Below, in pieces: positions 43,639 through 46,979 of a stretch of 64,000 nt of DNA. The position numbers were made by a program, and so were the translations under genes. This DNA comes from Candidatus Latescibacterota bacterium. Its GTDB lineage: Bacteria; Latescibacterota; UBA2968; UBA8231. The stretch covers positions 4,000,001-4,064,000 of the forward strand of contig CBDETY010000003.1 of NCBI GenBank assembly GCA_965243025.1. Direction: 5' to 3'. Within the stretch, counting starts at the first letter, position 1. Every line of letters starts with the position of its first letter. Below the pieces are notes generated by a model. It saw only the letters and a program-made list of their open reading frames with translations, made no database searches and was not told the origin of the DNA.

Positions 43639-45243
43639 ATGGCAACCGCACCAAAAAAACATAGAACCACCAAAGCCAAGACTAAACCGGACGACACCGT
43701 CGTTCCCGACTACAGGCCCGAGCTGTGGCGGATGGCCGACGCCCTGCGGGGCAGCATGGACGCCGCCGAGTACAAGCACGTCGTCCTCGGCCTGATCTTC
43801 CTCAAGTACATCTCCGACGCCTTCGAGGAAGCCCACGCCCAACTGGAGGCCGAGGCAGACCAGGGAGCGGACCCTGAAGACCCGGACGAGTACCGCGCCC
43901 AGAGCATCTTCTGGGTGCCGCCCGAGGCGCGCTGGACCAAGCTGCAAGCGCAGGCCCGCCAGCCCACCATTGGCCGTGCCGTGGACGACGCCATGACCGC
44001 CATCGAGCGGGACAACCCGGCGCTCAAGGACGTGCTGCCCAAGGATTACGCCCGCCCCGCCCTGGACAAGACCCGCCTGGGACAGGTGGTGGACATGGTG
44101 AGCAACATCAAGGTGGGCGGGGCCGAGGCCCGCGCCACGGACGTGCTGGGCAGCGTCTACGAGTATTTCCTGGAGCAGTTCGCGCTGGCCGAGGGCCGCA
44201 AGGGCGGCGAGTTCTACACTCCGCGCTCGGTTGTTCGCCTGCTCGTGGAAATGCTGGAGCCGTACCAAGGCCGGGTCTACGATCCTTGCTGCGGCTCTTC
44301 CGGCATGTTCGTCCAGTCGGTGGAGTTCATCCGCGCCCACGCCAGCGGCAACGGCAACGGCGGCAATGCCAGTGCGGACATCTCCATCTACGGCCAGGAG
44401 TCCAACTACACCACCTGGCGCATGGCCCGGATGAACCTGGCGATCCGGGGAATCGAGGGCCGGATCGAGCACGGCGACAGCTTCCACAACGACCGCCACC
44501 CCGACCTGCGGGCCGACTACATTCTGGCCAATCCCCCCTTCAACGTCTCTGACTGGGGCGGCGATCGGCTGCGCGACGACAAGCGCTGGGAGTACGGCGT
44601 GCCGCCCGTGGGCAACGCCAACTTCGCCTGGGTGCAGCACTTCCTCTACCACCTGTCGCCCCGGGGAACCGCCGGCTTCGTGCTGGCCAACGGCTCCATG
44701 TCCTCGAACCAGTCCGGCGAAGGTGAAATCCGCAAAAACCTGATCGAAGCCGACCTTGTGGACTGCATCGTTGCCCTTCCGGGTCAACTGTTCCGCTCCA
44801 CCCAGATACCGGCCTGCCTCTGGTTCCTGTCCCGGGGCCGCCGCAACGGAGAACACCGGGACCGGCGGGGCGCAACCCTGTTCGTCGACGCCCGCAAGCT
44901 GGGCCACATGGTGGACCGCACCCACCGCGACCTGTCCCCGGAGGACATCGCCCGCGTTGCCGACACCTATCACGCCTGGCGCGGCGGTGAGGGCACCGGC
45001 GAGTACGCCGACGTGCCCGGCTTCTGCAAGAGCGCCTCTCTGGAAGAGATCCGCAAGCACGGCCACGTCCTCACCCCCGGCCGCTACGTTGGAGCCGAGC
45101 CGCAAGAAGACGATGGGGAACCTTTCGAAGAGAAGATGGCCCGCCTCGCCAAACAATGGCGCGAGCAGCAGGCCGAGGCGAAAAAGCTGGACGCTGCAAT
45201 CGAGGCCAACCTGAAGGCACTCGGGTTCGGAGACAGTCAATGA
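43639..45243 (+). CDS. hsdM: Type I restriction-modification methyltransferase subunit M
   Basis: [32 protein letters not shown] (N6-adenine type), LTPGRYVG. Confidence 0.96.
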
Positions 45244-46979
45244 ACTACAGCGACCAGGAGATCGCTCGGCAACTTCGCCTGGGCGAGGACAGCCAATGGG
45301 AATTCAAGCAGACCGAGTTTTCCGGTAGCCGTCCAAGAAGCCCGAGCCGCAATGATTGGGCGGATGAGATCGCCGCTTTTGCCAACACGGAGGGAGGCGT
45401 TCTGCTCTGCGGAGTTACCGACGAAGGGGAGGTGCAGGGCATGTCGCGGGAGCGGATTGTCGGCCTGGACTCCCTTCTGGTCGAGGCCAGTACCGACTCC
45501 ATCAGGCCGGCGGTTCGCATCAGTACCCATCACAGAGAACTGGATGGCAAGCGGTTGCTCCTGGTCGAAGTACCTCGGAGCGAATCGCAGCATGACAGCC
45601 CGGGTGGAAGCTACGTCAGGGTAGGCGGGTCAAAGCGCCGAATGACAAGCGAGGAGCGGTTGCGGCTGGCACAGCGGCGCAGCCAGGCGCGGTTCCTGTG
45701 GTTCGACAAGCAGTCCGTGCCAAACACCGGATTGGGAACGCTGGACGAAGCGCTTTGGAGACCGTTGTTGAGCGCGGAAGGCAGGGCAGATCCGGAAACG
45801 GCGCTGGAAAAAATGGGCCTTCTCGGACGGGACGAACACGATACGATGCGAGCGACCGTCGCCGGCCTCCTCTTTTGCAGTCAGGCACCGGAGGAATGGC
45901 TGCCCAACGCCTGCATTACGGCCACCCATTACCGCGGTACGGATCGGGCCTCCGGCCAACTCGACACCCAGACGATCACCGGCCCCCTCAACCGGCAAAT
46001 TGCCGAAGCTGTCGCCTTTGCCGTGCGCAACATGCGCGTCGGGGCCTACAAAGATCCGGCCCGCATGGATTTGCCACAGTACAGTTCAGAGGCCCTGTTC
46101 GAGGCCATCGCCAATGCCGTTGCCCACCGGGATTATTCGATGCTCGGCAGCCGGATTCGCCTGTCCATGTTCGCCGACCGGTTGGAAATCCAGTCGCCCG
46201 GTTCCCTGGCCAACAGCCTGACAATAGATGAGCTGGAATTCCGGCAGGCGACGCGCAACGAGGTGCTTGCCTCGGTCTTCGGACGGATGCCGACCAGCGA
46301 TATCCAGGGAGCCGGTGGCCGGGTTTTCATCATGGAACGGCGCGGCGACGGCGTCCCCGTCATCCGGCGAGAGACCCGCGAACTCGCCGGGCGCCTGCCT
46401 CGCTTTGATCTGGTTGGGGGTGCGGACCTTCGCGTCACCCTTCCGGCGGCCTCCACCGAGCCGAGTCCTGCCCGTGTTGTCGTTTCCGTATGCGCTGGCA
46501 CCGAGCCGCTTGCCCATGCGGAAGTACTGGTGCTGTTCCCGAACAAGACCTGGAAACAGGCAACAACGGATGCGCTGGGCCAAGCCGTAATCGGCCTGTA
46601 TACGGTTGATCTGCCGATGACGGTGTTCGCGGCTGCCCGCGGTTTTGCCGCCCACTGCGAACGCGAATGGCGGCCTGCTGAAGGTGAGCTCACGATTGAA
46701 CTTGAGCCGCTTCCCGGCGGCGGTTCCGTCATTCTTTCGGAAGACAGCGGCCAAATTCCGGGGCTGAAAGGATCGCTGAATCCGATTCGAGACAACCTTG
46801 ACCGGACCTATCTCTACGCCTCGAACATCGCCATCAACCAAGGCCAGCAGCAGCCGGTACATATTGTGCTCGGCGAAGACCTGCGGCTCACCGATGTCAA
46901 TGGCGTCGAGATTACAGCGCGTATCGTGGAGATCCTGGGACGATCGGCACTGGTCGGGTACCGGCCGTTCAAGCCCTAA
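45240..46979 (+). CDS. Schlafen/AlbA_2 domain + HATPase_c_4 domain + C-terminal beta-sandwich domain protein
   Basis: [62 protein letters not shown]; all-beta tail VLFPNKTWK...LNPIRD. ATGA overlap with hsdM. Confidence 0.85.

Follow-up and report, generated by a model that had tools for sequence, protein, structure and literature searches.

A translationally coupled Schlafen-GHKL gene with a conserved two-part beta tail in a Latescibacterota type I restriction-modification operon

Why should a type I restriction-modification (R-M) operon of a Latescibacterota bacterium hold, between its methylase and specificity genes, a gene for a Schlafen nuclease domain joined to a GHKL ATPase and a C-terminal beta module? 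The operon lies in the 64,000-nucleotide (nt) stretch of DNA analyzed here, called the window below, and the gene in question (P0001, 45240-46979, forward strand) is open over 579 amino acids (aa). Our best explanation is that it is translationally coupled cargo of the R-M operon and not part of the restriction enzyme. Its ATG (45240-45242) shares the letters ATGA with the TGA stop of hsdM (45241-45243), and GGAGA stands 7–11 nt 5' of the ATG. Of 26 related loci in which a full hsdM abuts the gene, 23 have the same ATGA junction, directly preceded by the HsdM C-terminal motif. We regard the gene as real because 4200 proteins matched it at E ≤ 1e-3 (8000 candidates scored), the best 120 of them near full length. 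The first-pass annotation had placed the gene between hsdM and hsdS and had called it coupled to hsdM; Pfam and PADLOC matches of the neighbors agree with the first statement, the junction with the second.

Two Pfam families match the protein: SLFN_AlbA_2 (PF04326, residues 16–136, E = 9.7e-22, 78.2 bits against a cut-off of 25.3) and, after it, HATPase_c_4 (PF13749, residues 303–401, E = 8.4e-19, 67.8 bits against a cut-off of 26). This order in one polypeptide makes it a 'Schlatpase', the Schlafen-GHKL supradomain that a recent preprint (Kuzmenko et al., bioRxiv 10.64898/2026.05.29.728809) counts in 58.6% of 103,533 prokaryotic Schlafens. Both domains are present in all of the best 120 database homologues. 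No helix-turn-helix (HTH) family is among the Pfam matches of the 579-aa protein, and no NCBIfam family matched it. The nuclease motif reads E16-DSQW-E21-F-K23, with D61 further on, and fits Ex4(E/D)xK, the motif given as defining prokaryotic Schlafen nucleases (Taboada et al., Nat Microbiol 2026, PMC13056530). Among 66 aligned orthologues, E16 is kept in 63, E21 in 64, K23 in 62, N49 in 65 and D61 in 60, so that the acidic residues are intact, as had been said of them at first sight. An acidic residue downstream of Ex4(E/D)xK is catalytic in work on SLFN13 and SLFN11. In the ATPase part, E288, N292, H296, R297, D298, R339, N340 and G371 are invariant in 66 of 66. The E-x3-N spacing of E288 and N292, which were matched by motif and position and not by superposition, is that of E314 and N318, through which RzAgo coordinates Mg and the gamma-phosphate (bioRxiv 10.64898/2026.05.29.728809).

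The structural matches point the same way. An AlphaFold2 model of the whole protein (pLDDT 89.6, pTM 0.69) had as its top Foldseek match DIP2311 (3lmm_A, E = 2.1e-17), and it also matched histidine-kinase ATP-binding domains and the nuclease domains of mammalian SLFN11, SLFN13, SLFN5, SLFN12 and SLFN14 (E from 8.6e-5 to 1.9e-3). For the Schlafen lobe the fold matches include SLFN11 (7zep_A, 8.6e-5), SLFN5 (7q3z_A, 2.0e-4) and SLFN13 (5yd0_B, 4.7e-4). The SLFN-GHKL part of the PADLOC prokaryotic Argonaute (pAgo) model PDLC02394 matched residues 43–405 at E = 1.2e-16, against model positions 60–438. The core thus belongs to a family already described, and its setting, too, is of a kind already described.

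Residues 405–579, which we call the tail, match no Pfam family. Modeled by AlphaFold2 from a 40-sequence alignment, these 175 aa are all-beta and confidently folded (mean pLDDT 97.2, pTM 0.90), and form two sub-domains. The first-pass annotation had described an all-beta tail of about 165 aa with an immunoglobulin (Ig)-like fold in place of the usual winged HTH (wHTH). The beta structure and the lack of a wHTH stand; the length does not, and the Foldseek check that it proposed returned a beta-sandwich of transthyretin/CarboxypepD_reg type, followed by a second beta domain without a fold match. Sub-domain 1 is a seven-strand prealbumin-like sandwich of the transthyretin-like/CarboxypepD_reg/CnaB type (Foldseek TMt 0.75 to 5aq0_A). 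PF13620 does not match the window tail even at E ≤ 1; 24 of the 40 aligned relatives match it weakly (best E 2.1e-6), and some more distant tail relatives exceed its cut-off of 32.3 bits.

Sub-domain 2 holds the most conserved stretch of the tail, PGLxGxLNPIxD...RTYLYAxNIAI..G..QPV. Here all 66 orthologues keep N514, D518, R522, Q538, P539 and D552, and each of these residues except N514 is present in at least 90% of 40 diverse tails. No Pfam family or PDB sequence matched sub-domain 2; a profile of the tail run against PDB sequences matched sub-domain 1 alone. The fold matches found by Foldseek in the PDB, by VIA-align among 48,161 chains (coverage of model residues 3–89 of the tail) and by Foldseek in BFVD (generic sandwich domains of baseplate and fiber proteins) leave sub-domain 2 uncovered, in searches dominated by sub-domain 1. 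The best ESM Atlas score for residues 492–579 was 0.83, within the noise range. Mean pairwise identity over 35 orthologues was 0.62 for the Schlafen domain, 0.71 for the middle, 0.65 for the GHKL domain, 0.57 for the sandwich and 0.69 for sub-domain 2.

Is this tail peculiar to Schlafen-GHKL proteins? Searched alone with HMMER against 1.84 billion representative proteins, it matched 539 at E ≤ 1e-3 and 93 at E ≤ 1e-30, in proteins from about 90 to 760 aa long. A Pfam scan of 45 of the 539 found beside the tail HATPase_c_4 in 11 (three with SLFN_AlbA_2, one with DUF4062), TIR in eight, DUF4143 in four (one with AAA_14), and Pkinase, Trypsin_2 and Peptidase_C14 (caspase) in two each. PIN_8, Peptidase_M48 and a Fic-like_C wHTH alone were each seen once, and 13 proteins, many of them fragments, had no other family. 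Metagenome contigs gave 180 tail relatives; among the best 80, 79 had an open reading frame (ORF) over the match, and 41 of these 79 were Schlatpase-tail genes. The 38 carriers put through Pfam were the other complete ones together with two ORFs related to Schlatpases but of atypical length (L092 and L098): TIR-tail in 14, DUF4143-tail in six (five with AAA_14), DUF4062-GHKL-tail in two, HsdM fused in frame to GHKL-tail with no Schlafen domain in one (L092), Schlatpase-tail with a long N-terminal extension in one (L098), and no other family in 14. The tail is therefore borne by at least eight heads: Schlafen-GHKL, DUF4062-GHKL, TIR, caspase, PIN, AAA_14-DUF4143, Ser/Thr kinase and trypsin.

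The tail has also moved as a unit. We compared three distant carriers, two with an AAA_14-DUF4143 head (P0148 and P0210) and one distant Schlafen-GHKL protein (P0129); the tails were 45–57% identical against 13–30% for the N-terminal parts, which shows that the tail was shuffled as one block. Read from sequence, the kinase forms have a hydrophobic segment and then two tails, the trypsin forms a signal-peptide-like N-terminal segment and three tails, and several short tail proteins have hydrophobic N-termini, which suggests that the module may also work outside the cytoplasm. Tandem tails, two or three to a protein, stand on trypsin-like or kinase proteins (P0146, P0150, P0153, P0122 and P0199), also after other beta-sandwich repeats. 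In the DUF4062-GHKL proteins the tail is placed between the GHKL domain and a C-terminal wHTH. Within two genes of the tail gene, 16 of the 38 metagenome carrier loci had a PADLOC match at E ≤ 1e-12, among 91 of 104 neighbor ORFs scanned (the other 13 mainly run off contig ends); these neighbors include ThsB, AbiTii, LmuB, type IIG remnants, HNH effectors, PDC-S01, PDC-S60, bSEFIR and others. The PDC-S01 candidate family stands within two genes upstream of the tail gene at three otherwise different loci (L054:5026-6431, L098:785-2563 and L142:4819-6012). The L092 fusion (L092:3625-6534) is a 970-aa ORF in which a complete HsdM (HsdM_N and N6_Mtase) is joined to GHKL-tail from about residue 149 of the Schlafen protein, with the nuclease domain deleted and a bSEFIR gene downstream; it was seen at one locus only.

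A second copy of the tail was found neither in the 80 genome loci described below, nor elsewhere in the window, nor elsewhere in the 6.8-Mb genome, and with a single copy per genome and locus we do not take the tail for one half of a homotypic adaptor pair. No relative of the window tail turned up on viral contigs by exact peptide patterns, which detect close relatives only. We propose tentatively, as a possibility well short of even probability, that the tail, a transthyretin-like sandwich joined to a new small beta domain, is an undescribed portable module that binds a ligand or trigger and would couple one conserved signal to at least eight enzymatic heads, inside and outside the cytoplasm, having spread horizontally through some ten phyla.

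The whole gene is itself widely distributed. Almost all of the best 120 database homologues are 577–596 aa long, with 67–93% identity and 99–100% query coverage; relatives are named 'putative DNA binding domain-containing protein' in their source records. In contigs of one genome per species, 204 stretches encode a relative, and the best 80 are 56–91% identical to the window protein and come from about ten phyla: Poribacteria, Gemmatimonadota, Latescibacterota, Chloroflexota, Nitrospirota, Acidobacteriota, Alpha- and Gammaproteobacteria, Actinomycetota, Verrucomicrobiota and Spirochaetia are represented. Many of these lineages we take to be sponge symbionts, and the record title of one relative reads 'Candidatus Poriferihabitaceae'. 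In a quick maximum-likelihood tree of 66 rows, which leaves out 15 loci without an intact long ORF (L014, L018, L019, L021, L026, L040, L042, L044, L048, L059, L069, L070, L074, L077 and L078), the rows of most phyla group into one clade each. An exception is the clade of the window, whose nine rows (support 100) mix Gemmatimonadota, Latescibacterota and Verrucomicrobiota at 83–91% identity. Near-full-length orthologues were listed in eight of 40 related genomes searched, and the copies of two same-genus genomes are only 66% identical to the window gene, against 88–90% for copies from two other genera of the family (G001, G002, G012, G020, G035 and G036 are the genomes concerned). This patchy spread, with closer copies in other genera, is what an accessory gene passed on horizontally would show. 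Single genomes have up to nine Schlatpase-like matches, several of them with internal stops. The window's genome has two further, distant Schlatpase-like matches (31%; G000:C3:540883-542091 and G000:C3:2040407-2041378), both without the tail and one with an internal TAG.

How firmly is the gene tied to the R-M operon? We compared the 80 loci over about 8 kb by tblastn with the window's HsdM, HsdS and HsdR. A full hsdM ends at the gene start in 26 and an hsdM remnant in three; type I parts lie nearby in another arrangement in nine, no type I genes were found in 35, and seven have less than 600 nt of upstream DNA. Searching just upstream for the HsdM C-terminal motif added L001, L002, L015 and L030, so that, of the 73 loci for which 600 nt or more of upstream DNA is available, 33 have hsdM or a remnant directly upstream and, judged by their sequence, descend from the hsdM junction. 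At L001 (7819-8000) and, with the same junction, L015, about 50 nt of the hsdM 3' end (...NLKALGFGD) remain before an intact gene; the L001 gene is 90% identical to the window gene, the rest of its hsdM is gone, and the upstream gene encodes a DUF6785 protein. Of the 35 loci where no type I genes were found, 34 also lack the remnant motif upstream, and on the 66-row tree the hsdM-abutting state changed at least ten times. The methylase linkage is thus facultative. The first-pass annotation had read the gene as an R-M guard and had suggested a survey of hsd-linked homologues; the linkage stands for the 33 loci, and the guard idea is weakened by the loci without a trace and by tails on proteins unlinked to hsd.

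At the 35 loci free of type I genes, we ran PADLOC on 123 of 132 neighbor ORFs, nine long ones being left out, and obtained a match at E ≤ 1e-10 at 11. Two of these loci, from metagenome-assembled genomes (MAGs) of Pseudomonadota (L053 and L058), read HmaA-HmaB-[Schlafen-GHKL-tail gene]-HmaC, the gene starting within 10 nt of the HmaB stop, and L080 has an HmaB fragment at the position of HmaB upstream of the gene. HmaC at the two loci (L053:6167-13060 and L058:1652-13116) bears an N-terminal HEPN_Swt1 domain, and L010 and L061 share the hmaB-type junction sequence with them. A shared mobile unit that would include the upstream DNA was rejected, as the hsdM-type and hmaB-type junctions share no sequence. 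Elsewhere the gene lies between a ThsB-like gene and PglX with SIR2 (L040), adjoins a type ISP enzyme (L050), follows PbeC/DndD-like and DndH-like genes (L055), or neighbors HEC-01 (L052), PDC-S01 (L054) or HEC-03A (L033); L007 and L027 have weak mad2/mad3 (methylase/ABC-ATPase) matches alone.

What might such a protein do? The reading we favor, to which we give about even probability, is that of an autonomous anti-phage effector, an ATP-gated Schlafen tRNase carried as cargo of methylase operons, whose tail binds an activating or permissive ligand. By analogy with published relatives, its single-lobed Schlafen domains would pair into an active two-lobed nuclease, which would cut tRNA and stop translation in the infected cell. 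From the anatomy of the protein, the 175-aa tail would stand where a wHTH is usual, or where other Schlafens have a pAgo or Ig-like sensor, and would bind a trigger or other conserved ligand, releasing or permitting nuclease activity. Such a ligand is more probably some conserved molecule or structure, and less probably a phage protein that evolves fast, because the tail is conserved and is found on apparently secreted or membrane-anchored proteins. Autonomy from the restriction system is suggested by the facultative junction (33 of 73), the missing trace at 34 of 35 type-I-free loci, the repeated changes on the tree and the intact L001 gene without hsdM. We also count in favor of this reading the defense-rich neighborhood, namely a HigB-like toxin and a PIN_4 protein after hsdR in the window and the 16 of 38 tail-carrier loci with a PADLOC match.

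Several points weigh against it. The tail is about as conserved as the remaining protein and not hypervariable, which would fit a structural or oligomerization role instead of sensing, and sub-domain 2 is without a fold match, though we do not claim a new fold. In the Schlafen survey, the two systems of the pSlfn1 class (a Schlafen domain with 'His_Kinase_A') that were tried in E. coli gave no defense against the phage panel used (PMC13056530), and the class as a whole is without a demonstrated phenotype. At 24 of the 35 type-I-free loci no PADLOC match was found among the scanned neighbors; their Pfam neighbors are ordinary (sulfatase, permease, dehydrogenases, gyrase), which leaves room for a non-immune role. 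Finally, in two systems unrelated to each other an adenine-methylase gene, hsdM or HmaB (L053 and L058), directly precedes the gene, a position that hints at a functional tie which mere cargo would leave unexplained.

That tie is the starting point of a different explanation, which we consider unlikely: a guard like PrrC, held inactive by HsdM2S (or HmaB) and freed as a tRNase when a phage anti-restriction protein disables or sequesters the complex. PrrC with EcoprrI is a precedent for such a guard, and PARIS for the sensing of anti-restriction proteins. The coupling of the gene start to the hsdM stop would fit it, as would the occurrence of hsdM or a remnant directly upstream in several phyla, the place of the gene no more than 10 nt 3' of HmaB and 5' of HmaC, and the HsdM fusion at the one metagenome locus L092. 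It has to contend with the type-I-free loci that also lack the HsdM remnant motif, with intact copies that outlast hsdM (L001 and L015), and with the occurrence of both the Schlatpase core and the tail outside R-M loci; the window's genome holds one tail copy only, and the two Pfam families matched give no homology to PrrC. The room left by the 24 loci could instead be filled by a non-immune accessory protein or regulator, which would bind nucleic acid to tune the methylase or other genes and leave the nuclease unused for abortive infection. The old annotation 'AlbA_2 / RecG-like DNA-binding protein' and the names of the relatives agree with it, as do the two tested pSlfn1 genes and the 30.4% of prokaryotic Schlafen (pSlfn) genes that have no defense neighbor in the survey (PMC13056530). 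We hold this quite improbable: the protein has no HTH and its all-beta tail matches no HTH family, the catalytic nuclease residues are kept in 60–64 of 66 orthologues where a pure binding protein would not need them, and the horizontal-looking spread (eight of 40 related genomes; 66% identity within a genus) is typical of accessory defense genes. It is rather unlikely, too, that the tail is no sensor at all and instead an assembly or autoinhibition module that sets oligomeric state or location, the trigger being sensed elsewhere, for example as ATP level or nucleic acid by the core; this is compatible with any of the other readings, and its probability does not add to theirs. High conservation with invariant polar residues and no excess variability would suit it, as would tandem copies on secreted- or membrane-anchored-looking proteins, and the position before a C-terminal wHTH in DUF4062-GHKL proteins is not that of a simple wHTH replacement. 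Its C-terminal place on many unrelated heads (TIR, caspase, PIN, kinase, trypsin) is, however, the usual signature of a sensor or ligand-binding domain, and one copy per genome and locus does not make a homotypic adaptor pair.

The surroundings of the gene are set out in Table 1. The operon continues with hsdS, two transposase genes and an apparently intact hsdR. Directly 3' of hsdR, in the region 55356-58198, come an ORF with a HigB-like toxin match at its residues 88–161, an ORF of 414 aa without a Pfam family (55859-57103) and a gene for a PIN_4 protein (57224-58198), and further on, at 59157-59966, a Sir2-family gene. The G+C content drops from about 0.70 to 0.50–0.65 over roughly 43–56 kb of the window, and together with the toxin and PIN_4 genes this gives the locus the look of an acquired defense island. 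No tRNA gene was found in window positions 36000-64000, and promoter and terminator scans of 43300-49200 gave nothing above shuffled expectation. At related loci the gap between hsdS and hsdR holds other cargo genes: in Poribacteria (L012:13016-14686, L028:11417-12928, L013:6264-6914 and similar loci) these encode a TIR-domain protein, a TIR-AAA_21 ATPase and DUF4276. The pairing of the TIR-AAA_21 ATPase with DUF4276 resembles AriA/AriB of PARIS. At eight loci, including L003, L005, L006 and L008, the Schlafen gene and hsdS are separated by a gene for an NTase_sub_bind protein. The tail is absent from all these TIR, TIR-AAA_21, DUF4276 and NTase_sub_bind proteins of hsd operons.

Table 1. Features of the type I R-M locus and of the Schlafen-GHKL-beta-tail gene, in window coordinates.
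Feature	Coordinates	Strand	Basis
hsdM, type I R-M adenine methyltransferase, 534 aa	43639..45243	+	Pfam N6_Mtase E 1.7e-105, HsdM_N E 6.6e-28; PADLOC MTase_I E 1.8e-215
ATGA overlap of hsdM stop and Schlafen gene start	45240..45243	+	sequence inspection
Schlafen-GHKL-beta-tail gene P0001, 579 aa	45240..46979	+	open ORF, Pfam, homologues, AlphaFold2 model
Schlafen/AlbA_2 nuclease domain, residues 16-136 (E16-x4-E21-x-K23, AFAN motif 46-49, D61)	45285..45647	+	Pfam PF04326
Predicted Mg/gamma-phosphate residues E288 and N292, just upstream of the HATPase_c_4 match	46101-46115	+	motif
GHKL ATPase domain HATPase_c_4, residues 303-401	46146..46442	+	Pfam PF13749
Tail sub-domain 1, residues ~409-492, transthyretin-like/CarboxypepD_reg-like beta-sandwich	46464..46715	+	
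Tail sub-domain 2, residues ~493-579, small 6-7-strand beta domain	46716..46976	+	DSSP strands of models
hsdS specificity subunit, 476 aa counted from the first TTG	47035..48465	+	Pfam Methylase_S, two stretches, E 3.7e-29; PADLOC Specificity_I E 5.3e-93
Transposase gene, IS630-like, DDE_3 and HTH, in hsdS-hsdR gap	49095..50183	+	Pfam
Transposase gene, DUF772 and DDE_Tnp_1, in hsdS-hsdR gap	50308..51660	+	Pfam
hsdR restriction subunit, 1047 aa, apparently intact	51858..55001	+	Pfam HSDR_N, SWI2_SNF2, T1R_D3-like, T1RH-like_C over residues 5-1041; PADLOC REase_I E 0

Among bacterial Schlafens, no class is larger than that of the Schlafen-GHKL proteins. The family described here offers a handle on the switch that activates them, a confidently folded, conserved C-terminal module where other Schlafens carry their sensor. 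Its ligand, if identified, could explain the activation of several effector families at once, and if the tail is indeed a portable binding module, that ligand would supply the missing trigger for the pSlfn1/Schlatpase class. The repeated place behind an adenine methylase, in type I and Hma systems, makes the idea of a PrrC-style guard testable in a new family, and the spread across phyla at 56–91% identity is a clear case of a defense gene shared within one kind of community. Otherwise the gene is an ordinary restriction-operon passenger of a known family.

How much of this is new? The first-pass annotation had called the gene the best candidate for a new system in the window, a claim that does not hold, since both the Schlafen-GHKL core and its placement in type I R-M loci are already published. 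The survey of Taboada et al. sorts 5,930 prokaryotic Schlafens into 55 domain compositions, of which pSlfn1 is the commonest (2017 of 5930, 34%) and pSlfn2, with an added HTH, makes up 19%; 69.6% of pSlfn genes lie within 10 kb of a defense gene, and type I MTase, S and REase genes neighbor many of them, with about 630–650 mentions of a type I MTase in the tables (PMC13056530). Defense is reported there for DUF262-Slfn and RorSlfn5, with RorSlfn5 and EcoSlfn7 defending E. coli (PMC13056530). Figure 1f of the Schlatpase preprint has Poribacterial R-M operons with a Schlatpase, stand-alone or fused to HsdS (bioRxiv 10.64898/2026.05.29.728809). A Schlafen with His_Kinase_A and an Ig-like or prealbumin-like domain is not among the 55 listed classes or their variants in the survey, which covered reference genomes, and the Schlafen-GHKL-tail family is found almost entirely in MAGs (PMC13056530). 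Kaur et al. 2020 (PMC7159879) makes no mention of Schlafen, transthyretin, DUF4062, prealbumin, carboxypeptidase or sponge. Literature word searches, which miss domains published under another name, found no description of the tail, and they found the term 'Schlatpase' in one paper only. As far as our searches reach, then, the tail as a confident two-part module and its sharing among effector heads look new, and so do the full-length relatives at 56–91% identity in about ten phyla and the position of the gene behind an adenine methylase in two unrelated systems.

Set beside known systems, the window protein is nearest to pSlfn1/Schlatpase, with which it shares the two Pfam domains and their order, the Ex4ExK and E-x3-N motifs and a context that is often a defense island or a type I R-M locus; it differs in having a two-part beta module of 175 aa where those proteins have nothing or a wHTH. 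PrrC resembles it in another respect. The gene for this anticodon nuclease lies between hsdS and hsdR of EcoprrI, on which PrrC depends, and it too is a tRNA-directed nuclease gene inside a type I hsd operon, as the window gene is predicted to be. The likeness does not extend to homology, the Pfam matches being SLFN_AlbA_2 and HATPase_c_4 only, nor to obligate type I linkage, given hsdM or a remnant at 33 of 73 loci and 35 loci without type I genes.

For the beta domain as a sensor, the model is pSlfn5, represented by RorSlfn5, which likewise joins a Schlafen nuclease to a C-terminal beta-sandwich without an HTH. According to the survey, it is through its Ig-like domain that RorSlfn5 binds the T5 tail assembly chaperone; the nuclease of RorSlfn5, activated by phage, cuts tRNA (PMC13056530). 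Three differences separate the two. pSlfn5 is without a GHKL domain, whereas the window protein has one of about 270 residues between Schlafen and tail; the Ig-like domain is given as the most divergent part of pSlfn5 (PMC13056530), whereas the window tail is as conserved as the core; and the window sandwich is of the transthyretin/CarboxypepD_reg type with a second beta domain, unlike that of pSlfn5. The best match in both structure and sequence is DIP2311 of Corynebacterium diphtheriae (PDB 3lmm, AlbA_2-HATPase_c_4), over residues 29–404 at E = 3e-6 in sequence; the match ends at residue 404, and the C-terminal part of DIP2311 is unrelated to the tail. SLFN-pAgo (RzAgo) shares the SLFN-GHKL core, gave the best PADLOC match and is the sole mechanistic model for that core: in this Schlatpase-Argonaute fusion, ATP binding leads to tetramerization and then to tRNA cleavage (bioRxiv 10.64898/2026.05.29.728809). 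As its sensor it has an RNA-guided Argonaute core, about 700 aa long, where the window protein has its 175-aa beta tail instead.

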